A DNA stretch of 64,000 nt from an uncultured bacterium (GTDB taxonomy: Bacteria; Hydrothermota; Tepidihabitantia; SM23-42; CAYGYG01). Shown piece after piece: positions 30,972 to 51,922 of the stretch. The notes below the pieces were generated by a model. It did not search any database, was not told where the DNA came from, and saw only the letters and a program-made list of their open reading frames with translations. A program made the position numbers and the translations under genes. Within the stretch, counting starts at the first letter, position 1, and each line of letters opens with the position of its first letter. The stretch is taken from contig CAYGYG010000001.1 of NCBI GenBank assembly GCA_964354155.1, positions 139,121-203,120 of the forward strand, given 5' to 3'.

Positions 30972-31931
30972 ATGAAGAAAATCAGGAAAGTCCATATCGC
31001 CAGTCTACCGACGCCAATTGAGGTGATGCGCGACTTCCCGCATCCGGCCACGATTTTCGTGAAGCGGGATGACCTTACCGGGCTGCTGACCAGCGGCAAC
31101 AAGGTGCGCAAGCTCGAATACTCGCTGGCCGACGCCCTAAGCTACAAAGCCGACACGGTCATTACGTGCGGGGGCATCCAATCGAATCACTGCCGGGCGA
31201 CGGTCGCCTGTTGCCGCATACTGGGATTGAACCCGGTTATCGTTCTGCGGGGCGAACCGGTGCAACCCTATGACGGCAACCTCCTGCTCAATCAGCTGCT
31301 GGGGTGTGAAATCAGGTACATCACGCGGCGGGAGTACGATCATGTTGACGATTTGATGGAATCAATGGCCGCGGAGCTCATGCGGCAGGGCAAGCATCCT
31401 TACATAATTCCCGAAGGTGCTTCGAACGAAGTCGGTCTTCTCGGCTACATCGAGTGCATGGCTGAGATGAAAGAGTTCATCAAGCGGGAGCGGATCGAGG
31501 CGGTGTATGTCGCCGTAGGATCAGGCGGCACTTATGCGGGCCTGCTGTTGGGCAGAGTCATCCACAAGGTTGATGTTGATGTGTTCGGTGTCATCATCTG
31601 TGATACCGTCGAATTTTTCACCGAGAAGGTGTGCCGCATCGCTCAAGTCGCAGTTGACCGGTACGGCCTGGGCGCGGGAATTGATAAAGACGATGTCACG
31701 CTGGTTGACGGCTACATCGGCAAGGGTTACGGGATTCCTTATCGCGCCGAGATTGAGACGATCAAGAAGGTCGCGAAATTCGGCATCATTCTTGACGTGG
31801 TTTACACGGGCAAGGCTTTCCACGGTATGCTGAATCACGCCAAGGCCTACAAGAAGGTTCTATTCATTCATACCGGGGGCATATTCAGCCTGTTCCCGTA
31901 CCGGGAGGAATTCTATGGCCATCGGTCCTAA
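30972..31931 (+). CDS. PLP-dependent D-cysteine desulfhydrase / ACC deaminase family protein
   Basis: LPTPIEVMRDF...VKRDDLTGLLTSGNKVRKLEYSLADAL...TCGGIQSNHCRATVAAC...AVGSGGTYAGL are fold-type II PLP blocks typical of the DcyD/ACCD family. Confidence 0.75.
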   Translation: MKKIRKVHIASLPTPIEVMRDFPHPATIFVKRDDLTGLLTSGNKVRKLEYSLADALSYKADTVITCGGIQSNHCRATVACCRILGLNPVIVLRGEPVQPYDGNLLLNQLLGCEIRYITRREYDHVDDLMESMAAELMRQGKHPYIIPEGASNEVGLLGYIECMAEMKEFIKRERIEAVYVAVGSGGTYAGLLLGRVIHKVDVDVFGVIICDTVEFFTEKVCRIAQVAVDRYGLGAGIDKDDVTLVDGYIGKGYGIPYRAEIETIKKVAKFGIILDVVYTGKAFHGMLNHAKAYKKVLFIHTGGIFSLFPYREEFYGHRS

Positions 31932-31947
31932 CACAAGTCGTTTCGGC

Positions 31948-34560
31948 ATGCTGATGGCATCGATCGCGGCGCTCTCACTGGCCGCGCCGATCACGTTCGA
32001 CCCGGCGCAGACCCAGCCCTCGCGCTGGGTCGATCCCTACGGCCGGCAGCCGCAGTCTCATGCGCAGTGGGCAGCCGGGGTCGGGAGGGACGCCCTTGCG
32101 TACCTGGTCATTGGTGAGGCGGTCGGGACCGGTAAAGGGGCGAATCAGAATGTCGTCGATATCGTCGTCAATAGCCAGGTGTATCCTGACGTGGTATCGG
32201 AACTGGCCCAGTTCCGCACCGATCTTGTTGCCGCCGGATACGAGGTCCGCATTGATACGATACGCGGCATGTCGGCGCCGGCGCTGCGAACCCATCTGGC
32301 CGGCCTGGCCGGTTTGGTCGGCGCATTGTTTGTCGGCGAGTGTCCGGTCGAATGGTATGAAATCAATGGCTGGGGTGCGTGGGAAGAGTTTCCGATCGAT
32401 CTTTACTTTACGGACCTGAACGGGACCTGGGCCGATACCGACCTTGATGGTATTCTTGACTCGCACACCGGCAATGTCGCGCCCGAGATCTGGTTGGGCC
32501 GCCTCTATGCCCGCACCCTGACCTGGGATAGTGAGACGCGGCTCTACAAGAGGTACTTTCAGAAGAATCATCTGTATCGTACACACCAACTGACGTTACC
32601 GCAACGGGCCCTATCTTATGTTGACGATGACTGGTACGGTTGGGGTTCATGCTCGGTCAACCTGGTGTACCCAATAACCACCACGATTGAAGACATGGCG
32701 CTGACGACCGCCCAGGGTTATCGTCAGCAGCTTCAACAGGGTTACGAGTGGATTCACCTCTGCTCGCATTCTTCGCCCTGGGGTCACACCTTCAAGTACC
32801 CCGACGTCACAATTCAGTATAAAGGAACGGTCTTCAACTACGAACTCTTCGTGCTTGAGCCCAAGGCTCATTTCTACAATCTCTTTGCCTGTTCCGGAAC
32901 CAGATTCGTCGAAGAGAATTATTCAGCAGGCTGGTACGTATTCCACGATTCGTGCGGTCTCCTTGCCTTAGGCAGTGCAAAAACCGGGGGTATGCTGACC
33001 TTTCAGGATTTCTACACCCCCTTGAGTCAGGGACTGTCAATCGGCAATGCCTTCAAGGCTTGGTTTGTCAGAAACGGCGAGTCGAGCCGTGCCTGGTTCT
33101 ACGGACTGAATCTCTTGGGCGACCCAACTTTGAAGCCAAAGGAACAGGGCGGCGACTATGTTGCTCCACCGCCCCAGCAGTTCCACGGGGCTTTCGCCGA
33201 AGTCGTGGCGCCTGATTCTGAGAGCGACGGGATGCCGGCCATAGCAAGTGAGCCGTCCGGCCGCATCTGGGCGGTGTGGGAAACCGGCCGGTCGATTACG
33301 AACGGCCGCTGTGACATCTTCTCAGCCTACCGGACAACGGCTTGGTCAAGCGGTATGCCGGTTGGTTCCTTCATCTATTGGGACTACAATCCAACGGTCG
33401 GGCTGGACAGTCTTGACCGGCCGCTCGCGGTCTGGGCCGGCTGGGAGAATATTGGCGGCAACTACCAATATGACCTGTTCTGGAGTTACTACACCGGGTC
33501 AGCGTGGTCGAACCGGGCGCTGGTCCATCCGCTCGACCCGACATCGGATATGAAGCCATCACTGGCACGTGACCGGAACAAGCGCCCCTGGATTGCCTGG
33601 CAGACCAAACGCGACGTCAATTCCAATATCTATGTCACATACTACTCGGGGTCGGGCTGGAGCACACCGCGCGCCGTGAGCAACAATCCGGCCGAAGAGG
33701 TCGGGCCAAAGATCATCTGCGACAATACGGGTCGGCTCTGGGTGTCTTACAGCCGGCGTAGCGCAGACCGATCCCAGATATGGGGAAGCTATTACGACGG
33801 CGTGAACTGGATTGAGACCGGTCCGGTTTCGCAGAATCAGGAGCGGGCATACAATCCATCGGCTGCCGTCACCGGCACCGGAAAGGTCTGGGTGACCTGG
33901 CAGTCTTATGATGGCGGCAATGGTGAGATCTTCGGCAGCTACTACACCGGCACCGGCTGGTCAGCCCCGATCAACATCTCCAACCATGTGCTCAACGATA
34001 TGAGTCCGAGTATGGCGGCGGATGGTAATGGCCATGCCTGGGTTGTCTGGCACACTAACCGCGACGGCAATTGGAACATCTACTATGCTACCTGTCAAGA
34101 CCAGAGCTGGACTGCGCCTCAGGTGCTCGATGCTAATCCGGGGGTCGACATGAACCCTGCGATCGCTTCGGCACCGTCGAACAAAATGTGGGTTATCTGG
34201 CAGAACTATTCGGCAAACAACTGGGAAATCTATGCTCTGCAAAAGGATGCGGTAGAAATAGAAGAGAAAGAAGCAAGAGATAAGATGCTGGAAGCAAGAT
34301 TCACGATTTGGCCGAATCCTGCAAGGAGCGACGTTAGATGTCAGATTTCCGGTGTCAGTATGAAGAATACAAAAATCAAAGTCTATAATATCGCCGGAAA
34401 GATGGTTAAAGAAATGCCATTATCAGTTGGGGGTGGCAGTGCAGGAGCCCACTCATATCAATTCGTTCTGAATCTCTCAGATTTGGCTGCAGGAACCTAT
34501 TTTATTGGGTTGGAGAGCGGTGCGGGAAATGAAGTCCAAAAACTATCCATAGTCAAGTAA
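31948..34560 (+). CDS. second C25/gingipain-like peptidase-domain protein with W-rich repeat region and T9SS C-terminal domain
   Basis: Signal peptide MLMASIAALSLAAP. HLCSHSSPWGH and NLFACSGTRF look like a His/Cys dyad. At least 8 repeats of type Y(Y)xGxGWSxP. The T9SS tail is ...AAGTYFIGLESGAGNEVQKLSIVK. The ORF track starts it at 31915, overlapping the upstream gene. Confidence 0.6.
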   Translation: MLMASIAALSLAAPITFDPAQTQPSRWVDPYGRQPQSHAQWAAGVGRDALAYLVIGEAVGTGKGANQNVVDIVVNSQVYPDVVSELAQFRTDLVAAGYEVRIDTIRGMSAPALRTHLAGLAGLVGALFVGECPVEWYEINGWGAWEEFPIDLYFTDLNGTWADTDLDGILDSHTGNVAPEIWLGRLYARTLTWDSETRLYKRYFQKNHLYRTHQLTLPQRALSYVDDDWYGWGSCSVNLVYPITTTIEDMALTTAQGYRQQLQQGYEWIHLCSHSSPWGHTFKYPDVTIQYKGTVFNYELFVLEPKAHFYNLFACSGTRFVEENYSAGWYVFHDSCGLLALGSAKTGGMLTFQDFYTPLSQGLSIGNAFKAWFVRNGESSRAWFYGLNLLGDPTLKPKEQGGDYVAPPPQQFHGAFAEVVAPDSESDGMPAIASEPSGRIWAVWETGRSITNGRCDIFSAYRTTAWSSGMPVGSFIYWDYNPTVGLDSLDRPLAVWAGWENIGGNYQYDLFWSYYTGSAWSNRALVHPLDPTSDMKPSLARDRNKRPWIAWQTKRDVNSNIYVTYYSGSGWSTPRAVSNNPAEEVGPKIICDNTGRLWVSYSRRSADRSQIWGSYYDGVNWIETGPVSQNQERAYNPSAAVTGTGKVWVTWQSYDGGNGEIFGSYYTGTGWSAPINISNHVLNDMSPSMAADGNGHAWVVWHTNRDGNWNIYYATCQDQSWTAPQVLDANPGVDMNPAIASAPSNKMWVIWQNYSANNWEIYALQKDAVEIEEKEARDKMLEARFTIWPNPARSDVRCQISGVSMKNTKIKVYNIAGKMVKEMPLSVGGGSAGAHSYQFVLNLSDLAAGTYFIGLESGAGNEVQKLSIVK

Positions 34561-35234: not shown

Positions 35235-36974
35235 ATGAAAATGATATTTGTTCTTGCGATTTTGTATTTCACTCGTGTCTATGCTGTTGATTCGAGGGTT
35301 ACACCGATGGACAAAGCTTATGGACCGCCTGATCTGCACGCACGACGAAATAGTAGTTATGTTGCTGCACGTTCAAGAACGCCGATTATTATTGATGGAT
35401 GTAATGATAGGAGCTCTACATTGGGCGCAGCTGGGAAGAATATCTGTGCGGATACAACCGGAAGAAACATTGCGGTCCAGTATGGTGGTACTACACTGGA
35501 TACCACCAACTTCCAATCGAATAAATTTGCCTACTCGACCAACCAAGGAGCGACCTGGACAAGATTTGGACCTATCTCGGTAAGTCGGCCCTATTTCCGA
35601 AGACTATACGGCGGTTGCGATGCGCGTCCTGACTACTGGACTGATAACGAGATTATTTACACATGCTGGCATGAGGGTTATCGACGCGCTGGTGGCACAA
35701 ACGTGGATTCAAGCCCTGCAGCCTGTTGTCGCGACGATGGTACTTTCCCAACCGGCATGTGGAATAGGGCTCGTATGCCCCATACCGGCGACCCAGAACA
35801 TAATATCTGGATGACTTGCATTGCAGTAGCGCCTGATAACCGATCGATCATATATGAAACTGGTGGTGATTACGATTTCGGAGCGGGTGGGCTAAAAGAC
35901 CTGTTTTTGTGGGAATCGACCAACGCTGGTTGGAATTGGTCACAGCCACGACTGGTTATTCCCGGCTCAGCGACGATCGGTAGACACGATGGGATGCACA
36001 TCCGGTCAGGAACCGGTGGCTATTTATTTGCCTATTTCCAAAGAGATACTGTGGTCGGTGGTGAAACCCTGTGTTGGCCATACTACATTGAATCCACTGA
36101 TTTTGGAAATACCTGGATTCCGACCGCGGGCCGAGCCCTGATCACGACCATCCCTTATCCACAATACTCTCTCTCGTGGTACAACTATGACTGCGAAGTC
36201 GTAAACAACATACCCTATGTTGTCCTGACCCCAGGCGTGCCTGGTAATCACCGTAACCGGGTTGAGTTCTGGAAGGCGAGCGGCACTCCGGGTAACCGGA
36301 CCTGGACCATGATCCTGTTGGGCGGCACCAATCCGCCGGGAACAGATACGATTATGCGCGATGTTTCAATCACAAGCGGAAAGGCCTTTTTAAGGTTTGC
36401 GGATGTTATCATTGTCACATCTTTGGCCAGTAATGCTGTGGGAGTTGATCCGAGACTGTGGGTTTCGTCGAACCTGGGAACTGACTGGTCATATCGGGGC
36501 AATCCGGTGAATAACTCGTTGATTGAAGCATCCCTCGAAGTAGCACACACTCCGGGAAGAGGAACAAACCCCGATACTGACATTCGGCTCCATATGATCT
36601 GTAATGATGCAGGCGATTATCCTGTTTGCGGCTATGTTTATTATGAAGGATGTAATGTTCCTATTCTCGGGATCGAAGAAGAATTGAATAAAAACCTCAA
36701 CGCCTTCAATCTGCGGGTTGAACCGAATCCTTTCAGCCAGCGTACAAGCATAAACTACTACCTGCCCAAACCTGACCAGGTGAAGGTAAGAGTTTACAAT
36801 TCCCTTGGTGTTCAAATTGCTACGCTGTGCGATGGAGATCAGTTGAGTGGCACAAGAATGCTTGTCTGGCAAGGCACTGATGACAAGGGCAAGTCGCTAC
36901 CAGGAGGAGCGTATTTTGTGCAATTCAGAAGCTCGAGTGAAGAAAGGTGTGAGAAAGTAGTTCTCTTAAGGTAA
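35235..36974 (+). CDS. BNR/sialidase-like beta-propeller protein with T9SS C-terminal domain, paralog 1 of a tandem family
   Basis: Signal peptide. Family blocks VTPMDKAYGP, AGKNICADTTGRNIAVQYG, YSTNQGATWT (BNR), WHEGY, MPHTGDPEHNIWMTCIAV, YFQRDTVVG, WPYYIESTDFGNTWIP, WYNYDCEVVNNIPYVV. The T9SS tail ends KVVLLR. This copy is AT-richer than its neighbours. Confidence 0.75.
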   Translation: MKMIFVLAILYFTRVYAVDSRVTPMDKAYGPPDLHARRNSSYVAARSRTPIIIDGCNDRSSTLGAAGKNICADTTGRNIAVQYGGTTLDTTNFQSNKFAYSTNQGATWTRFGPISVSRPYFRRLYGGCDARPDYWTDNEIIYTCWHEGYRRAGGTNVDSSPAACCRDDGTFPTGMWNRARMPHTGDPEHNIWMTCIAVAPDNRSIIYETGGDYDFGAGGLKDLFLWESTNAGWNWSQPRLVIPGSATIGRHDGMHIRSGTGGYLFAYFQRDTVVGGETLCWPYYIESTDFGNTWIPTAGRALITTIPYPQYSLSWYNYDCEVVNNIPYVVLTPGVPGNHRNRVEFWKASGTPGNRTWTMILLGGTNPPGTDTIMRDVSITSGKAFLRFADVIIVTSLASNAVGVDPRLWVSSNLGTDWSYRGNPVNNSLIEASLEVAHTPGRGTNPDTDIRLHMICNDAGDYPVCGYVYYEGCNVPILGIEEELNKNLNAFNLRVEPNPFSQRTSINYYLPKPDQVKVRVYNSLGVQIATLCDGDQLSGTRMLVWQGTDDKGKSLPGGAYFVQFRSSSEERCEKVVLLR

Positions 36975-36983
36975 GGAGGGTAA

Positions 36984-37230
36984 ATGAAAACATTCATAGT
37001 CTTGATGTGCACATTATGCTCAACAGGTTGGCGATTGATACGCGAGTCACTCCGCGGGACCCAGGGTACGGGCCGCAGTATTATCGATCGAGTGGACCGC
37101 CGAGTCCGACCGCAGTGAGGATCGATGGAATACCAGACATACCATACGCACCAACCTATACCAATCGGGGTCATACCAATCCCAATGACCCCATGACCCC
37201 AAGTGCACCCGTAACAAGGATTTCTTAGGG
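36984..37230 (+). pseudogene. decayed 5' fragment of a paralog of the same BNR/T9SS family
   Basis: aaggagggtaaATG leads into MKTFIVLMCTLCS (signal-peptide-like), then a frameshift. In another frame the sequence reads AIDTRVTPRDPGYGPQYY...AVRIDG, which matches the family N-terminal block, followed by unrelated sequence and a stop. Confidence 0.55.
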
Positions 37231-37341
37231 CGAAAACCATCGGTTCCATATCGTCCGTTATTATTAAGGTTATGTGATTCGACGTTAATTCCGCAACGTT
37301 TCCGCAACGTTTCTTCAGTACAATATACTCAAGGAGCAGAG

Positions 37342-38997
37342 ATGAAAAAGTTATGGTTCACACTCATCATTCTTTGCACGTTTGGGTCGGCAATCGAAAC
37401 CACCGTCACGCCTCGTGACCCGCAGTATGGTCCATCAAGCCCGGCCAAGGGCCGACCACCCGGCCGGCTTGGCGTCAGGATTGATGCCGGTCCGGACTTA
37501 AGGTGCATTACCGGTGCTGCCGGCAAGAACATCTGCGCCGATACGACCGGTCTCAACGTTGCGGTCATCTACGGCTTCACCTCGGGTAATCCGGACAATA
37601 TCATGCAGACAAAGATTGGCTACTCGACGAACCGGGGCGTGACCTGGCGGCTATTGGGGCCGTTTTCAATCCACTGGCACCAGTATCGCCGGTGCTACTC
37701 CGGGATTGACGCCCGGGCAGGGTACTGGCCGAACAGCGAGAACGTCTACGGCACCTGGCACGAAGCGTATTTCCGGGGCGGTGCCTATATTGACACAAGT
37801 CCAGTGGCCGCAGCGTTCTGGCTATTCCCCAGCGGATCCATGGAAGTCAGGCACATGCCGCAGTCTATGGAAGGCAACTTCTGGCTCCCGTGCATTGCGG
37901 TCCGGCCCGACAACCCGGATTTCGTCTATGTCACGGCGGGTAACTACGACTTCGGTATTGGCGGTGTGGAGAGCATTGTTGGTTGGTTGTCCACCGACGG
38001 TGGCGATACATGGTCAGAGCCGATACATATCGTTGGCCGGGCATCCGACGCACCGCACATTCGTTTCGGCAGCGGTGGTTATCTGTTCGCCTATTTCCAG
38101 CGCGATACGGTAGTCGGCCCGGATACTTTGTTGTGGCCTTATTACATCGAGTCGACCGACAACGGATTGACCTGGATACCGCCCACTGGGAAGTGCCTCT
38201 TCACTTCGGCCCCTTACCGTCAGTGGTCGGGCTGGTGGTACAATTACGATTGTGAGGTTGTCAACAATGTTCCCTATGTGGTCATCTCGCCCGGGGTGCC
38301 GGGTCAACACCGGGACCGGACCGAATTCTGGAAAGCAAGCGGTCCGGTTGGTAATCGGACCTGGACAATGACGCTTTTGGGCGGGTCTAGTCCACCGGGC
38401 CAGGATTCGATCGTGCGCGAGGTTTCGATTGTGACCGGCAAGGACTATGCACGATTTGCCGAGAACATTGCGGTCATATCCAAGATCGGCACGGCAAGCG
38501 GCACCAGCCCGCGGTGCTGGGTGTCCAATGACTTGGGGTCAACCTGGCGCTACCTGGGCAACCTGAATATTCCGCTGGCGGCGGCGGACAATCCGCTCGA
38601 GTGTGCGCATGTGCCGGGCCGGGGCACCAATCCGGTGACCGATGTCTGGCTCCATTTTGTCTACTGGTCGGGGAATAGCGTCTACTATGATGGCAAAAAC
38701 ATCACGTGGGCAGAACTTGGCAGGGTAAGCGGCACCGACGGATCATCCGTCACGCGACCAATCACAATCTATCCCAATCCTGCCCGCAAGGGAATATGGT
38801 TGACGAAGCGCGATGACGACCGGCTGAAATATTTGGTCAGAATCTACGACGTCGCCGGGAAACTCGTTATGACGGCGGCAATAGATCAGGACCGAAGCGG
38901 GTGGGTCAATCTCGCCGCGCTGACTCCAGGGACGTACTTCGTCGAGGTGACGAGCCGGACATCATGGTTGGTTGAAAAGCTGATCATTGCAAGATGA
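37342..38997 (+). CDS. BNR/sialidase-like T9SS cargo protein, paralog 2
   Basis: RBS aaggagcagagATG. Blocks VTPRDPQYGP, AGKNICADTTGLNVAVIYG, YSTNRGVTWR, WHEAY, YFQRDTVVG, WPYYIESTDNGLTWIP, WYNYDCEVVNNVPYVVISPGVPGQHRDRTEFWKASGPVGNRTWTMTLLGG. The T9SS tail ends KLIIAR. Confidence 0.8.
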   Translation: MKKLWFTLIILCTFGSAIETTVTPRDPQYGPSSPAKGRPPGRLGVRIDAGPDLRCITGAAGKNICADTTGLNVAVIYGFTSGNPDNIMQTKIGYSTNRGVTWRLLGPFSIHWHQYRRCYSGIDARAGYWPNSENVYGTWHEAYFRGGAYIDTSPVAAAFWLFPSGSMEVRHMPQSMEGNFWLPCIAVRPDNPDFVYVTAGNYDFGIGGVESIVGWLSTDGGDTWSEPIHIVGRASDAPHIRFGSGGYLFAYFQRDTVVGPDTLLWPYYIESTDNGLTWIPPTGKCLFTSAPYRQWSGWWYNYDCEVVNNVPYVVISPGVPGQHRDRTEFWKASGPVGNRTWTMTLLGGSSPPGQDSIVREVSIVTGKDYARFAENIAVISKIGTASGTSPRCWVSNDLGSTWRYLGNLNIPLAAADNPLECAHVPGRGTNPVTDVWLHFVYWSGNSVYYDGKNITWAELGRVSGTDGSSVTRPITIYPNPARKGIWLTKRDDDRLKYLVRIYDVAGKLVMTAAIDQDRSGWVNLAALTPGTYFVEVTSRTSWLVEKLIIAR

Positions 38998-39055
38998 TGC
39001 AGCACAGGAGATGGGGAAACCGAAATCGAAGCGGCCTTGGGGATTGAGAAATCAC

Positions 39056-39083
39056 TTGACTTTTTCCGGCGGACTTGTATAAT
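39056..39083 (+). promoter_or_regulatory. sigma70-like promoter (TTGACT-16-TATAAT) for paralog 3
   Basis: ttgact at 39056-39061 and tataat at 39078-39083. The RBS aaggagg and a TTG start at 39141 follow. Confidence 0.6.
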
Positions 39084-39140
39084 CTTGGCATCCGAGGGTT
39101 GGCGCTCGGGTGTTGATCTGAATATGGGTAAGGAGGCGAA

Positions 39141-40841
39141 TTGAAGAGGGTCGTTTTCGTGTCGCTCATGTGGTCATACTTGCTATGTGCCGTGGATGCC
39201 AAGGTCCGGCCCCGGGACCTTATCTACGGGCCGACGGTTGACTGCCGCAGGACCAACCAGACAGCCGAGTCGCCAGGGGTCTACATCGATGACGTTCGGG
39301 ATGAACACAGCATTTTGGGCCCGAGCGGAAAGAACATTTGCGCCGACACGACGGGCCGAAACATTGCGGTCCAGTACGGCATGAACGCAGCCGGCCTGTT
39401 TACCTGAGCGCAGGGTACCCAGTGTAGAATAGGCTATTCTACCGATGGAGGGAATACCTGGCAGCGCCACGGGCCATTCGCCGTACGATATCCCAGCTAT
39501 CGAAGGCTATACGGCGGCATCGACGCGCGTGCGGGCGACTGGGTGGACAGCAACGAGTTGATCTACAGTTGCTGGCATGAGGCCTACGTTCGAAACAATG
39601 TCTATGTCGATTCCAGTCCGATCGGAGTTGCTTTTGACACAATGAGTTTTCCTGGCGGCGGCTTTCAAAGACGAACCATGCCCCACAGCGGCGATCCCGA
39701 ACATAATATGTGGCTCACCGGTATCGCGGTCAGTCCTGAAGACCCCGCACTGGCCTTGGTTTCCGGCGGCAACTATGTACTTCCCCACGGGCCCGGCGAT
39801 GTATATCTCTGGAAGACGACGGACCACGGACGCAACTGGTCGCACCCCCAACTTCTGATCAGCGGTTCGGCAGCCGTCAGGGACCATGATTGCCCGCATA
39901 TCCGGTTCGGCACCAGCGGATATGTTTTTGCGTACTTTCAGAGAGATACGGTGGTCGACTTCGATACGCTGAGCTGGCCTTACTATATCGAGTCTACCGA
40001 CAATGGCCGGACCTGGATACCCCATAATGGCCGGTGCATGCTTACGGCAGTACCCTACCCGCAATGGTCAAGCGGGTGGTACAACTATGACTGTGAGGTT
40101 GTGGACAATGTGCCCTATGTCGTTGTCTCGCCGGGTATTCCCGGCAATCACCGGGATCGCGTTGAATTCTGGAAAGCAAGCGGTCAAGTCGGCAACAGGA
40201 CCTGGACCATGTCGGTGCTGGCTGGTTTGACTCCGCCGGGGGCTGATTCTGCCAGGCTCGAAGTATCAATTGTTACCGGCAAGGACTTTGCACGATTCCA
40301 AGACGTTATTGCGGTTGTTGCCCAGACCATTACACCTGCCGAGGCTGATCCCCGAGGATGGGTGAGCAATGATGCCGGCGCAACATGGAGGTATCTTGGT
40401 TGTCTTCTGAACGAGCCGATGATCTACGAGGTCGCCTTAGAATGCGCCCATGTGCCCGGTCGGGGTTTTCAGCCCGAGACCGACATCCTGCTGCATATTG
40501 CCTACATCAGTCGTTCGAGACTCTACTATGCAGGATTCAATGTTGCCGGTGTCGGGGTTCCTGCGTCAAGCGGCGCGATTTGCCGCCGGCCCCATCTAGA
40601 GACAACGCCAAACCCATGCCGGGGCAGGCTGAGGATCCGCCTGGCCGGGGCAGAGAACAGCATGATGTTATGCGGTCGACTAAGACCACGTGTCTGCATC
40701 TATGACCCGTCAGGGCGGCTGGTTCGGGTTGCGACAATGTCCGGGCCGACATGCGTGATAGATATCGGACAGCCAGGGGTCTACTACATCGTAGTTGCAG
40801 TCGGCGAACGCGTGCTGACCAAGAAGGTTGTCATTCTTTAG
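39141..40841 (+). pseudogene. BNR/sialidase-like T9SS cargo, paralog 3, interrupted by a single in-frame TGA at 39405-39407
   Basis: The N-terminal 88 codons (MKRVVFVSLMWSYLLCAVDAKVRPRDLIYGP...AGKNICADTTGRNIAVQYG) are in the same frame as the downstream 432-codon ORF (...RIGYSTDGGNTWQRHGP...WHEAY...KKVVIL). The two parts are separated only by the TGA at 39405-39407. The rest of the gene and the T9SS tail are intact. Confidence 0.65.
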
Positions 40842-40957
40842 ACCGCGGTCGGCCTTGACCGACAACCAAGAAAACCAGAATGAGAAAAAGACGTTTTTTC
40901 ACAGCTCTTTCCTTGATTTAGGTATTCTAATTTCTTGTATATATAAATGGAGGTTTA

Positions 40958-42637
40958 ATGAAGAAAGCGATTGTACTTGCCGCTATTCTGTATTCGCTTA
41001 TTTATAGCCTCGATTGTAAGGTTACACCGAGGGAATACTGCGGACCACCGAATTCTAATTATTACCGCAATTATACCCCAAGCCCGAATGCGGTAAGAAT
41101 TGATTGGGGATTTGACATAAGAAGTATTATGGGGACAGCGGGGAAGAATATCTGTGCAGATACGACTCAAAAGAATGTGGCAGTACAATACGGCGAAGGT
41201 GGTTTAGGGGAATCTCAGAATTATACTCGCTGCAAGATTGCGTATAGTACAAATGGTGGGAATGGTTGGCAGCTGTTTGGCCCTTTTCATATCCAGTATC
41301 CATCGTATCGGAGACTTTATGGCGGTATTGATGCCCGGGCGACAAATTGGTACAATAATGAAATCATCTATGCTTCATGGCACGAGGCCTATTACCGAAG
41401 TGTTTACGTCGATTCAAGCCCACTGGCCGTCGCTTTTGATGAAGGTAATTTCCCTAATGGTTCCTTTCGATTAGCAGCGATGCCCCATTCAGGTGATCCG
41501 GGGCATAATATCTGGTTGACTTGCATTGCGGTGCGGCCCGATGATGCAAATATTGTCATTGCCTCAGGCGGTGATTACGATTTTGGCGCGGGTGGACCAA
41601 AGGATATCTTTACCTGGAAATCCACTGATGGCGGCTATACCTGGTCGCCGCCTCAGCTTTTAATACCAGGATCAACCACAATTGGTCTACATGATGCCCC
41701 TCACATCCGGTTTGGAACTGGCGGTTACGTATTTGCCTATTTTCAACAGGAGACCATTTATGGTTTCGACACATTAATGTGGCCATACTGCATCGAATCC
41801 ACCGACAATGGCCAGACCTGGGTACCGCCAAACGGCAGGTGCATGTTCACGGCAATCCCCTGTCCGCAATGGTCAAGCGGGTGGTACAACTACGACTGTG
41901 AGGTTGTCAACAATGTCCCCTATGTGGTCATCTCGCCCGGGGTGCCGGGTCAACACCGGGACCGGACCGAATTCTGGAAAGCAAGCGGTCCGGTTGGTGA
42001 TCGGACCTGGACAATGACGCTGTTGGGCGGGTCTAGTCCACCGGGCCAGGATTCACTCGTGCGCGATGTTTCGATTGTGACCGGCAAGGACTATGCACGA
42101 TTTGCCGAGAACATTGCGATCATATCCAAGGTCACAAATCAGAGTGGCACAAGTCCACGCTGCTGGGTGTCGAACGACCTTGGGGCGAGCTGGCGCTACC
42201 TGGGCAACCTGAATATTCCGCTCGCGGCGGCTGACAATCCGCTCGAGTGTGCTCATGTGCCGGGCCGGGGCACTAATCCGGTTACCGATGTCTGGCTACA
42301 TTTTGTCTACTGGTCGACGGGCAGTGTCTACTACGAAGGTGTCAATCTGACCGGAGTTGCTATCGAGGAGGTGATCGGTCAGGGCACGGCCTTGCCCGAG
42401 ATACTGGTCATGCCGAATCCAGCAAGGGGACAAGTGCGGCTTGCGGTCGATAGTGATGGACTGCGGCCGGGATTGATAAGAATCTTTGACGTCACCGGCA
42501 AGCTCGTCAAACAGGCAGTGCTGAGACTTTCAGGTTTCGGCACGATCGACATCTCATCTCTTTCTCCTGGAATGTATTTCGTTGAAATCGGGAAGGGGCA
42601 AAAGAAGCAGACTAAAAAGCTGGTTGTCGTGCGGTAA
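40958..42637 (+). CDS. BNR/sialidase-like T9SS cargo protein, paralog 4 (mosaic: AT-rich 5' half, 3' half near-identical to paralog 2)
   Basis: Signal peptide MKKAIVLAAILYSLIYSLDC. The same family blocks. T9SS tail ...GMYFVEIGKGQKKQTKKLVVVR. Confidence 0.8.
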   Translation: MKKAIVLAAILYSLIYSLDCKVTPREYCGPPNSNYYRNYTPSPNAVRIDWGFDIRSIMGTAGKNICADTTQKNVAVQYGEGGLGESQNYTRCKIAYSTNGGNGWQLFGPFHIQYPSYRRLYGGIDARATNWYNNEIIYASWHEAYYRSVYVDSSPLAVAFDEGNFPNGSFRLAAMPHSGDPGHNIWLTCIAVRPDDANIVIASGGDYDFGAGGPKDIFTWKSTDGGYTWSPPQLLIPGSTTIGLHDAPHIRFGTGGYVFAYFQQETIYGFDTLMWPYCIESTDNGQTWVPPNGRCMFTAIPCPQWSSGWYNYDCEVVNNVPYVVISPGVPGQHRDRTEFWKASGPVGDRTWTMTLLGGSSPPGQDSLVRDVSIVTGKDYARFAENIAIISKVTNQSGTSPRCWVSNDLGASWRYLGNLNIPLAAADNPLECAHVPGRGTNPVTDVWLHFVYWSTGSVYYEGVNLTGVAIEEVIGQGTALPEILVMPNPARGQVRLAVDSDGLRPGLIRIFDVTGKLVKQAVLRLSGFGTIDISSLSPGMYFVEIGKGQKKQTKKLVVVR

Positions 42638-42727
42638 CCGCCGGGCAAGCCGGAATCATCATGGTTCCGTTCTTCACTACCCAATCTCTTGACTTATTAC
42701 GGGTTTTGGTGTAAAATATTCGTCCGT

Positions 42728-44422
42728 ATGAAGGGCTATTTGATGTTTGTGCTCCATTCGCACCTACCCTACGTGTTGGGGCATGGCCGCTGGCCGCACG
42801 GTACCGACTGGCTGAACGAAGCGGCGGCCGAGACCTATATACCACTACTCAACAGCCTCTTTCAGCTGGTCAGCGAGGGGTACCATCCGCACTTAACCAT
42901 CGGCATCACGCCGATTCTGGCCGAACAATTGACCGCCGACTCCTTCAAGAAAGAGCTTTTGACTTACCTGCAGTTCAAGATCGAGGCCGCCAAGAACGAC
43001 CGTTTCGAGTTCGCCCGCTACGGCGAGGGTGAGTTCGCGGCCCTGGCTGAATACTGGGGTAGTTTCTATACCAAGGTGCGCGATGATTTTGTCAGCCGGT
43101 ACAAGGGAAACATCCTCAACGGTTTCAAGATCCTTCAACAGACCGGATTCATCGAGATAATAACCTGCGCCGCAACCCACGGCTACCTGCCGTTGCTTAG
43201 AGACGACCGGTCGGTAGAGCTTCAGATTGCCCAGGGCATTGAAACCTACAAGCGGCACTTCGACATCAAACCGGCCGGGATCTGGCTGCCGGAATGCGCC
43301 TACCGTCCGGCCTACAACTGGGCTGCGCCGGTCGGCAAATACCCTTCCGAGCCCAGGAAAGGCATCGATGAATTCCTGAGCGACCACGGCATTGACTATT
43401 TCATTACCGACAGTCACATGCTCAAGGGGGGTAAGGCGATCGGCATGTACCTTGCCCGTTTTGATGCGCTCAAGAAGCTCTGGGAGCAGTACGAGAAGGA
43501 ATTCATCGAGATCAAGGAGGGTTTTCGCAAGACTCCCTACGAAGCATACCTGGTTGCCTCCAATCCACAGAAAAAGCCGGTCTCGGTGTTCACCAGGGAT
43601 CCGAAGACCGGGCTCCAGGTCTGGAGCGGAGAATGGGGCTATCCGGGTGATGGCAGTTATCTCGATTTCCACAAGAAGCGTTTTCCCGGCGGGCTGCGCT
43701 ACTGGCGCGTGACCAATCCAAAGATCGACTTAGCGCTCAAGGAGATCTACCGTCCGGAGGTGATCGAGGATAAGGTGAAAGAACAAGCGCGCCACTTTGT
43801 TCAGCTGGCCTCGACCATTCTGGCGGACAATTTCAAGAAAAGGAAACGGCCCGGCATCCTGTGCGCGCCGTTTGACAGCGAGCTTTTTGGCCATTGGTGG
43901 TTTGAGGGCCCGCGCTGGTTATATCACGTCCTGAAGATCATTGATGACGAGAAGGTCATCGGTCTTGCTACGGGCAGCGAGTATCTGAAAAAAGAGCCGC
44001 CGACCAAAGTCATATCCTTGCCCGAGGGCTCGTGGGGCGAAGGCGGTTTCCACTACATCTGGCTCAACGAATGGACCAAGTGGACCTGGGCGCACATCTA
44101 CGAGGCGGAGGACGAGTTCTACTCAATACTCGCCCGCGCGCGGGGCAAGGGCAGTGAGGTTTTGGACAGCGTGCTCCGGCAGCTGGCCCGGGAACTGCTG
44201 CTCATGCAGAGCTCGGACTGGCAGTTCCTGATATCGACTTTCAGTGCCCGGGATTATGCAGAAATGCGCTTTGTGCGCCATCAGCGTAATTTCAAGCGCA
44301 TCGGGGGGATGGCCGACCGATTACTTGGAGGAAACCAGCCGGATACTGCGGATTGGGCATTTTTCAAGGATGTCGAAGCTCAGGACAACATCTTTCCCAA
44401 GCTGGTTCTACCGTCCGCCTAA
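42728..44422 (+). CDS. glycoside hydrolase family 57 protein (GH57 1,4-alpha-glucan branching enzyme-like, with C-terminal DUF1957-like helical domain)
   Basis: MKGYLMFVLHSHLPYVLGHGRWPHGTDWLNEAAAETYIPLL is the classic GH57 N-terminus. ...WLPECAY... is also present. The ORF track starts at 42689, but the ATG at 42728 is preferred. Confidence 0.75.
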   Translation: MKGYLMFVLHSHLPYVLGHGRWPHGTDWLNEAAAETYIPLLNSLFQLVSEGYHPHLTIGITPILAEQLTADSFKKELLTYLQFKIEAAKNDRFEFARYGEGEFAALAEYWGSFYTKVRDDFVSRYKGNILNGFKILQQTGFIEIITCAATHGYLPLLRDDRSVELQIAQGIETYKRHFDIKPAGIWLPECAYRPAYNWAAPVGKYPSEPRKGIDEFLSDHGIDYFITDSHMLKGGKAIGMYLARFDALKKLWEQYEKEFIEIKEGFRKTPYEAYLVASNPQKKPVSVFTRDPKTGLQVWSGEWGYPGDGSYLDFHKKRFPGGLRYWRVTNPKIDLALKEIYRPEVIEDKVKEQARHFVQLASTILADNFKKRKRPGILCAPFDSELFGHWWFEGPRWLYHVLKIIDDEKVIGLATGSEYLKKEPPTKVISLPEGSWGEGGFHYIWLNEWTKWTWAHIYEAEDEFYSILARARGKGSEVLDSVLRQLARELLLMQSSDWQFLISTFSARDYAEMRFVRHQRNFKRIGGMADRLLGGNQPDTADWAFFKDVEAQDNIFPKLVLPSA

Positions 44423-45220
44423 GCCCCGGCTGGCGCCCAGCAAAACAAGCATTCCCGCCAATAGACAGTAGATCGAGAAGAGATAGAACGACTTCCGGAT
44501 CAAGAGCTTCTTGAGGCCGAGCAGGGCGCCGACCCCGACTGCATAACTCACCGTGACTCCCACCACTATCGAAGCGAAATCGATCGAGGCCGTGATGTTC
44601 TTAAACTCCGTGAGGTTGGCGCCGAGCATCGCCGGAATGGCAAGCAGAAATGAGAACTCGAATACTTCAGCCGGGTCCATGCCCTGAAACAAGCCGGCGG
44701 AAATAGTCATCCCGGAGCGCGAGATACCCGGGAAGATGGCGAGGGCTTGAAAGACCCCTATGACCAGGGCGCGGCGCCAGCGGTTCGGCAGCTCCCGGTT
44801 GCGCGCAAACTTGGTTGCAAGAAGAACGATGCCGGTGATCAGAAGACCCGCGCCGATGACGGCCGGGCTGCCAAAGCTTTGCTCGACGGTGTTTTTGAGC
44901 AGGAAGCCGGCAAGGGCGGCAGGAATTGACCCCAGGATGAGAAGGAGGAACACCCTCAAATAACGGTCGGTGATTTTGACGCGGCGGTCGATGACGATCC
45001 GTCCTTTGAGAACCCCGCGGATCATTCGGCCGATCGGCCGGTAGAATACCGTTATGATCGATAGCAGTGTGCCCAAATGGAGATAGACGGCCAGGTCAAA
45101 GATTTCTTGAATGCCAAAGAACTGCCCCAAAAGGGCCAGATGGCCGGAACTCGAAATCGGCAGGAACTCGGTAATGCCCTGGACAACAGCGAGAATGATG
45201 ATGACAACTATACCAGGCAC
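44408..45220 (-). CDS. uppP: undecaprenyl-diphosphate phosphatase
   Basis: VQGITEFLPISSSGHLAL and PGISRSGMTISAGLFQG are UppP/BacA signature motifs. 8 TM helices. Confidence 0.85.
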   Translation of the reverse strand: MPGIVVIIILAVVQGITEFLPISSSGHLALLGQFFGIQEIFDLAVYLHLGTLLSIITVFYRPIGRMIRGVLKGRIVIDRRVKITDRYLRVFLLLILGSIPAALAGFLLKNTVEQSFGSPAVIGAGLLITGIVLLATKFARNRELPNRWRRALVIGVFQALAIFPGISRSGMTISAGLFQGMDPAEVFEFSFLLAIPAMLGANLTEFKNITASIDFASIVVGVTVSYAVGVGALLGLKKLLIRKSFYLFSIYCLLAGMLVLLGASRGLGGR

Positions 45221-46032
45221 AAAGCCCCCAATCCCGCCGCCATGCCGACCTTGAGCAACCAGCTTGCGCGGGTCAACGTTCTGGTATCAGGATGCGAAAG
45301 CATTTTTAGAAGGATGAAGACCACCACCGGCACGACCGTTACTCCGGCCGCAATCAAGTAGCGGGAGTGAAACCGGCCGAGCACGACCGGAACCGGCAGT
45401 AGCAGCAGGAGTATGACCAGCCCACCCGCTGCGCCGCGCAGCGCCCGATCTGGTCCGATCGTCAGCGCCAGCGAGCGCCGCTTCGAGGTCCGGTCGCCCG
45501 AGATGTCGAGGATATCTTTGACGATCTCCCGGGAATAGTGAAAGCAGAAGGCAAAGGCGGCGGGGAAAACGGCAAGACCGTTCCCGGTGATCAGACCTCC
45601 GGTCAAAAAGGCAAGGCTGCAGAGCAAGGCGACGACGGCATTGGAAAAGAAGGTATTCTTGATCTTATAAGGATAGAGGAAAAGCAGAGCAAGCGCCGAC
45701 GCGACTACGGCCCCCACGGTAAGGCTTACGCAGAACGCGATTATGAGCGAGCATATGCCAAGCAGGATTGCCCAGGTGAGCGCGAGCCTCCTGGTGACCC
45801 GGCCCGAGGGGAGGGGCCGGGATGGATGGCTGATCCGGTCGGCCTCGATGTCATAGCAGTCGTTGATCACATTGCCGAACGCAGCCGAGAACGCCGCGGC
45901 CAGCGCGGTCAAAACCAGGGACAAGGGAAAGACAACCGGGCGACCGACCCATCCCCCGACCAGCACTGAAACGAAGACGATGCCTACGTTGACGGGCCGG
46001 ATGATTTCGACCAAGGCCAAGCGCCGCCTCAA
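45208..46032 (-). CDS. UbiA-family polyprenyltransferase
   Basis: NVINDCYDIEADRISHPSRPLPSG is the first Asp-rich motif; DILDISGDR is the second. Multipass membrane protein. Confidence 0.75.
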   Translation of the reverse strand: MRRRLALVEIIRPVNVGIVFVSVLVGGWVGRPVVFPLSLVLTALAAAFSAAFGNVINDCYDIEADRISHPSRPLPSGRVTRRLALTWAILLGICSLIIAFCVSLTVGAVVASALALLFLYPYKIKNTFFSNAVVALLCSLAFLTGGLITGNGLAVFPAAFAFCFHYSREIVKDILDISGDRTSKRRSLALTIGPDRALRGAAGGLVILLLLLPVPVVLGRFHSRYLIAAGVTVVPVVVFILLKMLSHPDTRTLTRASWLLKVGMAAGLGALCLV

Positions 46033-47383
46033 ATGCCAATCTGGGTCGTGACCAAGATCACGTTCTTGGTTGCCCCGCGGCCCGGCACATTATCTTCGTT
46101 GTTGATCCAGCGGCGGTTGTATTCGACTTTGACTCGTGCCGAAAGAACCGGAAAATACTCGAGTGCGAAACCGAGTTCCTTGGTCGTCTCCACGACGCCC
46201 GAGGGGAAAACAGGATTGGGGTCGCCGCCTTCTTCTTCCCAGGACCGGTCAATGCGGCCCTCGCCTTTTCGTTTCAAGGACGGACTGAAGCCGGCATTCA
46301 GGCCGAGCCTGGTTCGGTAATCGATCATGATCTTGTACAGGTCCGCGTCCGGGCCGAGCCAGTGGCCGATGCACTTGCCGTCTTTGACGTATTCGTTTAT
46401 CGCCTTGCGCTGGGTGTAGACCCACTTATCAATGTGAACATATTCAGCACCGAGAAGCCAGCCTTCAGCCGGGAATGCCGTCAAGCCGGCCAGATATCCG
46501 AGCTTGTTAGGTGCCGGCGGTACGGTGTCGTAACGATAGTCGTCAATCAGGAGTTCGCCGTACACCTTGCAGGGACCCACGAAAAACTTGCCGTCCAGCG
46601 CCCACATGATGTTGTCGTCTCGGTTGACGATCCACTGGGAAACGTAGTAGGGCACGAGGGGGTTTATGTAGAATGGCTCGAGCGCGCCTCCGACAAGGAT
46701 AAGTTCCGAGAAGCTGACCGATGATCGACCCCGCCGCAACTCAATACGGTGCAGGGCCAGGTACCGTCTCGTTTCCGCCAGCGAAAAGGCCGCCGTGAAG
46801 CAGAACGAACCGCTCGTCGTCTTCATGAAGAAACCGTTGAAGGAGCCGGAGAAGTCGGAGAGAAGCAGTCCACCGGTCCGTCCCGGCCCCAGAAGCCATT
46901 CTTTGCGGCCGACTTCGAGTTTCGTGGTCCGGGCGGTGTAGATAAACTCAGCATCTTCGATATAAAACTGGAAATGATGCCAGGGGTAGGGGAAGGAGTC
47001 TTCGATGGTTTTCGCGTACTGGATGTTGTAGCGGGTTGAGTAATTGAGACGGTCGGCAATTCGGCCGGCAAAGAGCAGTCTCGTATTGACATAATGATTT
47101 TCCGGTTCGCTGCGGTACCGGGAATTGATGCCCAGCAGGTAGAACTTGCTGTAGTCTTCCCGCACGAAGGGACGCATCTTGCGGAGGATATGGTTTTCGT
47201 AGCACCTAAGCTCGAGCGCGGCAGCTTCCAGATTCGATAATTCCGTCGTCACGGCGGGAATTTCGTAGGGTCGGCTCTCGGCAAGATCGATCAGCCCACG
47301 ACCTTCAAGATATTCAAGGTCAAAATTGAGCGACGAGCCGATGGGCATCGTCTGCGCAACTACGAATAGAAATAAGAGCATCA
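46029..47383 (-). CDS. putative outer-membrane protein (beta-rich, signal peptide), unknown function
   Basis: Starts at MLLFLFVVAQTMPIGSS and overlaps the stop of the upstream Omp85 gene. Rich in aromatic residues with alternating hydrophobicity. Confidence 0.5.
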
Positions 47384-48898
47384 CAGCCTCCTTTCGATTC
47401 GGACGTGTACCTTTCCGTCCTGCCATGGTTGTCCGGCGGGGAAGGCGACGTCAAGCTGGCCACTGAGCACGCGGCTTCGGGCTTCGACGCCGATTCCATA
47501 GGCCAGATGGCGCTCCGTCGAAGCCACCCCGTCGTCCAGGATGGCAAGGCCGTCCAGGAACGGATAGAGGGGGAACTTCTTGTATTCGAGACTGAACCAG
47601 ATTGCTTTCTCGGCGAGAAATTCATCTTCCCAGTAACCCCTCAGGGTACGGGCGCCGCCGAGGCGGAAAAGGTTCTGTTCCTGAATAGGTTCTTCCCAGA
47701 GCCAGGCCAGATGGTTAGCCAGGACGAAATCGCCGAGCATGTGGCGGCCGTCGATCCGGGCCGTCACCCGACGATCGTTGCGGTCGTAGAAACCGACTTC
47801 CACCCGCAGCGTATCCCGGATGCGATCCTGATCGATGATGGTGCCCAGGCTCACGAGTTGAAGTCGCTCGCCGCGTGAGTCTTCGATGCCCCAGGCCGCG
47901 GCGAGATGGAAATCGGTGAATATCTCTCGCAGAACTTGGGCTAGCACACGAATCTTGCGGCGATCGTCATAAGTCTCCTGGTCAAGGGAAAGCCGGATCC
48001 GGGCCGGGAAGATCAACCAGGGCTCACCGTAGGCAATGCCGAAGTCACGACCTTGATGGTCGTAATTTAGGAAAAAAGTGCGGGCGGTGCCGAGCAGATT
48101 GAAGAAGTTTAGATTCAAATCGAAATTGAACTTGGCCGGTTCGGGGCGATAGTCGGCCCGACCCTCGATGTAGTCCTGCTTCTGTTCGTCGACAACCAGT
48201 CTTAGATAGTATTGGTTGTCCCGGGCCACGACCGATTCTTCGATGCGGCTGAAAAGCCCGGTCTTGAAAAGCCGGGCTTTCTGTCGTCGAATCTGCGAGG
48301 ACTTGAACAGAGAATCACCGCTGAGCGCGAACATCCGGCGGATCACAAAATCGCGCGTTGCCCGGTTGCCGGCAACGTCGATACCGCCAAGATGAACGAC
48401 CGGTCCTTCGTTGATGACAAACGCCATGATCAACGTGTCGGTGCCCGCCGACGAATCACGTACCGATATCCGGACCAGGGGCAGGCCGGCATCGCCGTAG
48501 ACATCGAACAGCCGCTCGATGTTGCTCTCCACCCGTCGGCGGTCAAAGAACAGGGGAGCCGCGAACGGCAGTTTCCTGAGCATCCATGAGGTGGCAAAGG
48601 TGCGGTTACCTTCAAGGATGAATTCCTTGATGACGTGGCGGGAGCCGGGCCGTACTTGGTAGAGGATATGTCCATTTTTGATTTCGTGCTCAACTGCTGC
48701 GTCCAGATACCCGGCCTCATGGTGACGGCGGACAATCGTCGAGATATCGGAGGCAACGTGGACGGCCGTGGTCGTTTTCTTGTCCAGGGGATGGATTACG
48801 GCGCTGTTCCTGATTTTGACGCGGTAGATACTGTCTCTTGCTTCCGACCCAGGATCGGCCGTGGAAAGCATCAATGCAAAAACAAGTAGGGACGCCAT
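47381..48898 (-). CDS. Omp85-family outer-membrane protein (BamA/TamA-like, POTRA plus beta-barrel)
   Basis: Signal peptide. POTRA-like N-terminal region. Barrel region with ...NLFRLGGARTLRGYWEDEF... (the Omp85 GG..RGY motif). About 505 aa. Confidence 0.7.
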   Translation of the reverse strand: MASLLVFALMLSTADPGSEARDSIYRVKIRNSAVIHPLDKKTTTAVHVASDISTIVRRHHEAGYLDAAVEHEIKNGHILYQVRPGSRHVIKEFILEGNRTFATSWMLRKLPFAAPLFFDRRRVESNIERLFDVYGDAGLPLVRISVRDSSAGTDTLIMAFVINEGPVVHLGGIDVAGNRATRDFVIRRMFALSGDSLFKSSQIRRQKARLFKTGLFSRIEESVVARDNQYYLRLVVDEQKQDYIEGRADYRPEPAKFNFDLNLNFFNLLGTARTFFLNYDHQGRDFGIAYGEPWLIFPARIRLSLDQETYDDRRKIRVLAQVLREIFTDFHLAAAWGIEDSRGERLQLVSLGTIIDQDRIRDTLRVEVGFYDRNDRRVTARIDGRHMLGDFVLANHLAWLWEEPIQEQNLFRLGGARTLRGYWEDEFLAEKAIWFSLEYKKFPLYPFLDGLAILDDGVASTERHLAYGIGVEARSRVLSGQLDVAFPAGQPWQDGKVHVRIERRL

Positions 48899-49733: not shown

Positions 49734-49766
49734 GCTAACCTCCTTGATTCTAAGCTCAACATACAG

Positions 49767-49839
49767 TGGAGCCGACGGGATTCGAACCCGTGACCTTCTG
49801 ACTGCCAGTCAGACGCGCTCCCAACTGCGCCACGGCCCC
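49767..49839 (-). tRNA. tRNA-Ala (anticodon GGC)
   Basis: The reverse complement GGGGCCGTGGCGCAGTTGGGAGCGCGTCTGACTGGCAGTCAGAAGGTCACGGGTTCGAATCCCGTCGGCTCCA has the G3:U70 Ala identity pair, anticodon loop CTGGCAG, and T-arm GGTTCGAATCC. Confidence 0.9.
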
Positions 49840-50001
49840 GAAACGGCAAGCAGGGCAGAGGATACAGGGAACAGCCCGTAACCAGACCCTGACTTCCGGA
49901 GATAGCAGCAAGGTGCAAGCACCCACACCGATATCCCGCTTCAATACTACGTAGGAATCGAGGAATGTCAACAGAAAACAGGGGTTAGCGGGCAGCGAAG
50001 G

Positions 50002-51921: not shown

Positions 51922-51922
51922 A

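Follow-up and report, generated by a model that had tools for sequence, protein, structure and literature searches.

A conserved in-frame TGA followed by a SECIS-like hairpin in a putatively secreted β-propeller gene of candidate division WOR-3, a possible selenoprotein gene

The window, i.e., the whole 64-kb stretch of DNA that was analysed, harbors four tandem paralogs (35235-36974, 37342-38997, 39141-40841, and 40958-42637) with mutual identities of 48-54%. The frame of the third one, hereafter paralog 3, extends from a TTG codon at 39141 to a TAG codon at 40839-40841 and is open apart from a TGA at 39405-39407, where the translation reads ...AVQYGMNAAGLFT on one side of the TGA and AQGTQCRIGYSTDGGNTW... 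on the other. The preliminary description of this DNA had reported the single TGA in an otherwise open frame, a palindrome that begins 16 nt after it, and the presence of selA and selB in the same window; translation, folding, and profile scores bear out all three observations. The features relevant to the locus are as follows.

39130-39136 (+ strand): Shine-Dalgarno sequence AAGGAGG, with the TTG start codon at 39141-39143; both are kept in all three lineages described below
39141-40841 (+ strand): gene of paralog 3 (566 codons, one of them the in-frame TGA), coding for a predicted signal peptide, a BNR/sialidase-like β-propeller, and a putative T9SS-type C-terminal domain
39405-39407 (+ strand): in-frame TGA at codon 89, the candidate selenocysteine codon, present in the window and in the orthologous loci L002, L001, L003/L009, and L018
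39408-39542 (+ strand): the 45 codons straight after the TGA, devoid of in-frame ATG, GTG, or TTG, which evolve as coding sequence
39424-39442 (+ strand): candidate bacterial SECIS upper stem-loop, with an 8-bp stem (39424-39431 paired with 39435-39442) and the apical loop GGC (39432-39434)
40608-40838 (+ strand): C-terminal sorting domain, T9SS type A-like and somewhat degenerate, alignable to the paralogs' Por_Secre_tail domains
50002-52011 (- strand): selB, encoding the elongation factor specific for selenocysteine, which has winged-helix domains for SECIS binding (Pfam GTP_EFTU, Beta-barrel_SelB, SelB-wing_2, and SelB-wing_3; TIGR00475, 379 bits for a cutoff of 242)
51923-53323 (- strand): selA, selenocysteine synthase (Pfam SelA, E=3.5e-148; TIGR00474, 569 bits for a cutoff of 268)

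The gene callers of NCBI, JGI, and ENA all split paralog 3, yielding pieces of 88 aa and of 377 to 432 aa, and all the public assemblies inspected mis-annotate it in two or three fragments. Among the in-frame ATG, GTG, and TTG codons given by the ORF listing, the earliest possible restart 3' of the TGA is the GTG at 39543. A change of the genetic code, with TGA read as Trp or Gly, was considered and ruled out: TGA terminates 15 of the 40 other long ORFs of the window, and the code is therefore the standard one.

Paralog 3 yields only sub-threshold BNR/Asp-box matches in Pfam, while its neighbors at 40958-42637 and 35235-36974 match Por_Secre_tail and FlgD_ig, respectively. Its tail is recognized by TIGR04183 with an E-value of 2.6e-4 and 20.9 bits, below the cutoff of 23; the tail of the 40958-42637 paralog scores 47.6 bits with the same profile and 50.6 bits with the Pfam one. 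An AlphaFold2 model (pLDDT 74.5, pTM 0.70) comprises an N-terminal helix, a β-propeller, and a C-terminal β-sandwich, with the hydrophobic N-terminus, a predicted signal peptide, modelled as a helix over residues 2-20. The solved folds closest to this model (Foldseek, E~1e-10) are polysaccharide lyases of the PL42, PL24, and PL25 families and GH33 sialidases, with TM-scores of 0.48-0.62 when normalised by target length and sequence identities of only 10-14%. The protein resembles T9SS type A cargo proteins that combine a propeller of this type with a PF18962/TIGR04183 tail, in that it has a predicted signal peptide, Asp-box-like motifs, and a putative C-terminal β-sandwich sorting domain, and it is found in a tandem array, together with three intact paralogs that match Por_Secre_tail or FlgD_ig. 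It differs from them by a tail that scores below the curated cutoff, by the TGA in its gene, by its low identity to solved structures, and by the tiny size of its family. Only 12 matches were found among 5.8 billion proteins, one of them labelled candidate division WOR-3, and a profile search of genome contigs identified a single other genome with relatives of the family, a WOR-3 MAG. The propeller family thus appears to be restricted to WOR-3.

In the AlphaFold2 model, residue 89, which corresponds to the TGA, belongs to a low-confidence loop (residues 85-89) of the first propeller blade, between the strands formed by residues 75-82 and 93-100. The loop that carries the TGA is 13 residues long in 23 of 30 family members, with 'FTSGDPDNIFQTK' as its typical form, and 16 residues long in paralog 3 ('MNAAGLFT-U-AQGTQCR', where U stands for the TGA), which places the TGA within an insertion in a variable loop. 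As the preliminary description had pointed out for the paralogs, the stop is not aligned with a Cys; the family alignments agree, and of the family members examined (12 close ones and about 30 that are more distant), none has a Cys clearly aligned with the TGA. Of the 30 loops of more distant relatives, only that of P0071 has a Cys that can be aligned, and this alignment is ambiguous. The spacing between the TGA position and Cys95 (U-x5-C) is common to paralog 3 and its sister paralog. A further homolog, P0039, which starts exactly at the KIGYS motif, was considered as a second protein split by a TGA and was discarded, as it is merely cut by the end of its contig.

Orthologous loci were collected from the contigs of the five members, all of them truncated, of the cluster of the annotated C-terminal fragment (P0001), and a third lineage, L018 (Logan ERR4334728), was found by a search with the 88-residue N-terminal piece. 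L002 (Logan), whose contig was seen in five samples, is identical to the window, while L001 (ENA) and L003/L009 (JGI) are the same in sequence and 91.6% identical to the window. Over the 975 nt that they share, the three lineages differ from one another by 8.5, 7.8, and 5.3% at the nucleotide level. Searches of genome and metagenome contigs with family profiles yielded no more orthologs of paralog 3, and recovered only paralog-level relatives, in the one other WOR-3 MAG, and the known JGI copy. The comparison thus covers three closely related lineages, the only ones in the databases searched. Sediment samples in which the organism occurs include ERR4334728, ERR4334734 to ERR4334736, ERR3804377, and JGI 3300032020.

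All three lineages have the TGA at codon 89, in assemblies from NCBI (a MAG), ENA, JGI, and Logan, and no further stop or indel is present in paralog 3 of any of them. An error of sequencing or assembly at 39405-39407, one of the two explanations preferred in the preliminary description, is therefore excluded by the occurrence of the same TGA in independent assemblies of several datasets and of three diverged lineages, including a contig recovered from five samples. The codons at 39387-39392, just upstream of the TGA, vary by lineage (GCAGCC, GCATCC, or TCAGGC), as does site 39416 downstream of it, which puts the TGA on three distinct local haplotypes. The other two lineages are combined in L018, a mosaic that indicates recombination, and changes that appear to be lineage-specific are therefore not strictly independent. 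The TGA is ancestral to the three lineages.

The gene evolves as coding sequence on both sides of the TGA. When the window was compared with L001 by the Nei-Gojobori method, dN/dS was 0.26 for paralog 3 as a whole (p=3e-13 against neutrality), 0.29 for the 88 codons upstream of the TGA (p=0.0016), and 0.25 for the 477 codons downstream of it (p=4e-11). For P2 and P4, two of the intact paralogs, the same pair of genomes gives values of 0.24 and 0.32, and the constraint on paralog 3 is therefore equal to that on its undamaged neighbors. The C-terminal sorting domain of paralog 3 has a higher value, 0.43. In a neutral simulation in which the 143 observed substitutions were placed at random with the observed mutation spectrum kept (5000 runs), 97±5 amino acid differences were expected, compared with 59 observed, and none of the 5000 runs gave 59 or fewer. 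Only 1.4% of the simulations produced no new stop (P=0.014). Codon changes that are private to one lineage, which by parsimony are later than the TGA, are distributed between synonymous and nonsynonymous ones as 13:11, 25:17, and 7:8, against a neutral expectation of about 26:74. The 45 codons that follow the TGA, in which no start codon is available, differ from those of L001 by five synonymous changes and one nonsynonymous change (p=0.012), a pattern that favors translation across the TGA over re-initiation. The sequence on either side of the TGA is thus translated and under purifying selection, and paralog 3 is very probably a gene still in use, its UGA being decoded.

Downstream of the TGA, the inverted repeat GTAGAATAG-G-CTATTCTAC at 39424-39442, which begins 16 nt past the TGA, is 100% complementary (9+1+9). 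As a loop of 1 nt is sterically impossible, the RNA folds as an 8-bp stem closed by a GGC triloop, at a UGA-loop spacing of 24 nt. Calculated energies are -5.4 kcal/mol for the upper hairpin alone, -8.6 kcal/mol for a 30-nt fold with two stems, and -17.8 kcal/mol for 60 nt. The consensus for bacterial SECIS (bSECIS) elements, as given in Fig. 2 of PMC13188914, consists of an upper stem of 4-16 bp, a loop of 3-9 nt with a G in its first two positions, a UGA-loop spacing of 16-37 nt, and a minimum free energy of -7.5 kcal/mol or lower. With its loop of 3 nt that starts with GG, its 8-bp stem, and its spacing of 24 nt, the hairpin conforms to the consensus of that figure, and its energy does so in the 30-nt fold but not in the upper hairpin alone.

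How much weight this agreement deserves depends on how often it arises by chance. The consensus as depicted in the figure is permissive, since about 5% of all TGAs of the window pass a simplified version of it, and 11% of the window's TGA triplets are followed by a consensus-compliant hairpin of equal stability. The 64 kb contain about 15 distinct perfect Watson-Crick hairpins that have a stem of at least 8 bp and a loop of 3-9 nt, and for any one TGA the probability of such a hairpin lying 16-37 nt downstream is about 0.005. Compared with synonymous recodings of the same peptide, the observed hairpin is not unusual in energy (P=0.12), and the probability of a stem of at least 8 bp is 0.015-0.02. 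The stability of the local fold is not significant, either for 72 nt relative to shuffled sequences (z=-0.70) or after recoding (P=0.12-0.34). Geometry and the GG start of the loop thus fit the published consensus in the form cited above, but stability is unexceptional.

The 19 nt of the hairpin are invariant in the three lineages, while the synonymous sites 39416, 39446, 39449, and 39458 around it vary. There is no covariation in the upper stem, because the stem is invariant. A 3-bp lower stem (39419-21 paired with 39446-48) was initially included in the element and then dropped, as it is broken in L018 (U39446C). None of the 12 other family loci, i.e., the paralogs and nine others, all free of the TGA, has the hairpin; their versions of the K/R-I-G/A-Y-S-T motif are spelled with other codons, which form no such stem. 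In paralog 3, the stem is encoded by TGT-AGA-ATA-GGC-TAT-TCT-ACC, which includes the rare codons AGA, ATA, and TCT (7, 12, and 6% of their respective codon families). With respect to the sister paralog, the hairpin originates from four synonymous codon choices together with one K-to-R and one A-to-G change. Rfam detected no SECIS or other RNA family, either in the whole window at the gathering threshold or in the 39300-39560 region at E-values up to 10.

Both selA and selB are intact and score above the NCBIfam equivalog cutoffs, and they are located about 11 kb downstream of paralog 3. Within the 64-kb window, neither a tRNA-Sec gene (selC; ARAGORN, Rfam) nor selD was detected, and an extended view of the contig (L015) revealed no sel or selenoprotein gene beyond the end of the window. 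A scan of the window for in-frame TGAs with at least 60 open codons on each side identified no other plausible selenoprotein gene.

The recoding of the UGA with a SECIS-like hairpin, to which the preliminary description had given second rank, emerges from these data as the best-supported reading, and the earlier preference for a pseudogene or an error is reversed. The balance tips slightly toward the TGA at 39405-39407 being a selenocysteine (Sec) codon, with Sec inserted through a minimal SECIS element. When the UGA occupies the A site of the ribosome, the 39424-39442 stem-loop would be positioned just outside of the mRNA channel, where it would recruit SelB loaded with Sec-tRNA(Sec), itself made by SelA. 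The full-length product, 566 residues long, would consist of a signal peptide, a β-propeller, and a C-terminal domain of the T9SS type, and Sec would be its residue 89, in the enlarged, lineage-specific loop of the first propeller blade (…GLFT-U-AQGTQC…). We infer that SelB binds the hairpin and that Sec, rather than another residue, is inserted at the UGA. As to the role of Sec, one may speculate on the basis of the U-x5-C spacing that a selenenylsulfide might form with Cys95; binding of a ligand or a metal would be another guess.

The closest known systems are bacterial selenoprotein genes with an intragenic SECIS element, such as fdhF of E. coli, described by the bSECISearch consensus of Zhang and Gladyshev as summarised in PMC13188914. 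Shared properties are an in-frame UGA conserved among orthologs, the presence of selA and selB, and purifying selection upstream as well as downstream of the UGA, together with a hairpin located immediately downstream, whose small apical loop starts with G-G and lies 24 nt from the UGA, where that summary allows 16-37 nt. In contrast to the known elements, the hairpin is AU-rich, has a minimal loop of 3 nt, and lacks a bulged U. Similarly, paralog 3 differs from known bacterial selenoproteins in that it has no Cys homolog, its UGA lies in a lineage-specific loop insertion rather than at the position of a catalytic Cys, and it is not an oxidoreductase. The main argument against Sec is that no homolog has a Cys at the position of the TGA. 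The nature of the protein, a secreted, carbohydrate-active-like propeller rather than an oxidoreductase, also counts against it, as does the AU-rich, weak hairpin of ordinary stability. Further points against Sec are the absence of covariation and of an Rfam match, the disruption of the lower stem in L018, the small number of lineages, and the fact that neither selC nor selD is found in the window.

Translation through the TGA does not by itself imply Sec insertion, as the evolutionary evidence fits equally with SelB-independent readthrough. A near-cognate tRNA such as tRNA-Trp would then occasionally read a leaky UGA, possibly with some help from the hairpin, and small amounts of full-length protein with an ordinary residue 89 would be made; selection may act on this minority product, or the stop may be a throttle on the expression of one of the four paralogs. 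The lack of a Cys homolog and the loop position would fit a residue of little chemical importance, and the hairpin is weak and statistically unexceptional in stability. The A1 protein of phage Qbeta is reportedly an example of programmed UGA readthrough. Both cases feature an in-frame UGA that is conserved and followed by functional coding sequence, and paralog 3 is distinguished by having the whole functional domain after the stop and a Sec-recoding apparatus nearby. Few chromosomal genes of bacteria are known to rely on readthrough, and the 3' context found here, UGA-G, is not known to be leaky. Readthrough is also disfavored by the dedicated system for UGA recoding that is encoded so close by, and by the agreement of the hairpin, in its spacing and in the G-G start of its loop, with the SECIS consensus published in the figure cited above. 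Furthermore, if residue 89 were unimportant, mutation of the TGA to a sense codon would be favored, and yet the TGA is fixed on three local haplotypes. On these grounds readthrough is regarded as unlikely.

The two explanations in which the UGA acts as a genuine stop fare less well. A young nonsense pseudogene was the other explanation that the preliminary description held to be most economical. It would be a null allele of recent origin that recombining strains passed among themselves, perhaps because loss of a secreted or surface protein is advantageous, and the low dN/dS would be a legacy of a functional past. The position of the stop in a variable loop, out of register with any Cys, the splitting of the gene by the NCBI, JGI, and ENA gene callers, the recombination among lineages attested by the mosaic L018, and the sub-threshold sorting domain with its higher dN/dS would all be consistent with this idea. 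On the other hand, the haplotypes differ at -15 to -18 nt and at +9 nt from the TGA, and spread by recombination would require repeated patches shorter than 25 nt. The presence of the TGA on three local haplotypes makes the recent recombinational spread of a null allele implausible, despite the mosaic structure of L018. In addition, the overall dN/dS of 0.26 is matched on both sides of the TGA by values like those of intact paralogs, the synonymous excess extends to the terminal branches, no second lesion has arisen in any lineage (P=0.014), and the start codon and Shine-Dalgarno sequence are kept. These data contradict decay of the gene, and a pseudogene is thus quite improbable. Even less credit can be given to a split gene, in which an 88-residue secreted peptide would be followed by a separately initiated C-terminal protein, starting for instance at GTG 39543 or ATG 39678. 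The gene callers yield exactly such pieces; however, the synonymous-biased constraint also applies to the 45 codons that separate the TGA from the earliest potential start, and the C-terminal piece would have no signal peptide although it bears a T9SS sorting domain. According to the model, the split would moreover cut through the first propeller blade, between the strands at 75-82 and 93-100, and would leave the C-terminal piece without half of blade 1. A functional split of this kind is thus very improbable.

If Sec is indeed inserted, the mechanism would be the known bacterial one, and the novelty would reside in the protein family, in the position of Sec, in a new loop without a Cys ancestor, and in its location, in a cargo protein of the T9SS. 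The BNR propeller is not among the families named in the examined passages of the review PMC13188914, and the terms BNR, sialidase, and secreted are absent from that review. Nothing relevant on selenoproteins, either of WOR-3 or in the cargo of the T9SS, emerged from searches of the literature. The chances are evenly balanced for the broader proposal that Sec was gained de novo in an inserted surface loop rather than by replacement of a catalytic Cys, and that paralog 3 represents an extracellular, non-oxidoreductase selenoprotein family of WOR-3 that has no Cys counterpart and uses a minimal, AU-rich triloop SECIS element. The known prokaryotic selenoproteins are almost all redox enzymes with abundant Cys homologs, and their discovery by homology relies on Cys/Sec pairing. 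Such pipelines would, if it is real, overlook a secreted propeller whose Sec occupies a novel loop and which lacks a Cys counterpart. The protein would extend selenium biology to the cargo of the T9SS and to the WOR-3 phylum, and it would provide a natural example of a Sec codon and its SECIS element arising together inside a coding sequence.

Paralog 3, the secreted β-propeller gene at 39141-40841 (plus strand) with an in-frame TGA at 39405-39407, is mis-annotated as a split gene in every public assembly examined. The NCBI annotation retains only a C-terminal open reading frame of 387 residues (P0001, 39678-40841), and the JGI, ENA and Logan calls give a piece of 88 or 79 residues together with one of 377 to 432 residues. 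The C-terminal sorting domain (40608-40838) is unusually rich in Arg and Cys and scores 20.9 bits against TIGR04183, below the cutoff of 23 bits. It also evolves faster than the propeller, with dN/dS values of 0.43 and 0.20, respectively. At the RNA level, a 4-bp hairpin, CCUG-AGCG-CAGG (39403-39414), includes the UGA itself, and its sequence is the same in all three lineages that carry the gene.

The selA and selB open reading frames (minus strand, 51923-53323 and 50002-52011), as listed, overlap by 89 nt (51923-52011). Neither selC nor selD adjoins this operon, and two genes lie downstream of selB (region, 48871-53323):

49766-49839, tRNA-Ala(GGC)
48871-49662, HNH endonuclease gene

Elsewhere in the window, additional T9SS-type cargo genes are abundant, and two DUF4140/DUF4139 paralogs lie side by side; for the 547-residue open reading frame that follows this pair, a Pfam search returned no family.

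Other genes in the window
26017-29499, C25 (gingipain-like) peptidase, T9SS-type cargo
31915-34560, 881-residue protein with Por_Secre_tail as its sole match, T9SS-type cargo
59834-62017, FG-GAP repeat protein with a FlgD_ig tail, T9SS-type cargo
62174-63775, further BNR propeller, T9SS-type cargo
1264-2916 and 3220-4782, DUF4140/DUF4139 proteins

The two strongest perfect hairpins of the whole window both have 13-bp stems and probably represent intrinsic terminators or regulatory palindromes of another type:

7883-7912, stem AAAGGGAAGGCCG…CGGCCTTCCCTTT
12379-12406, stem AGGGTAGAAGAGA…TCTCTTCTACCCT

Four secreted β-propeller paralogs, 48-54% identical in pairwise comparisons, are arranged in tandem at 35235-42637, and the family's closest folds are those of polysaccharide lyases and sialidases. 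Only 12 relatives were found among 5.8 billion proteins, and the family appears to be almost restricted to WOR-3. Between the window and L001, the ENA contig that carries the paralog 3 ortholog, dS amounts to 0.21-0.33 for the propeller paralogs, about half the synonymous divergence (0.54-0.61) seen in the housekeeping genes next to them, GH57, BacA, UbiA and Wzi (region compared, 37342-47426). This lower divergence, together with the mosaic sequence of L018, a Logan contig (ERR4334728) of a third lineage that combines the other two, suggests that the paralog array has recently undergone recombination or gene flow.
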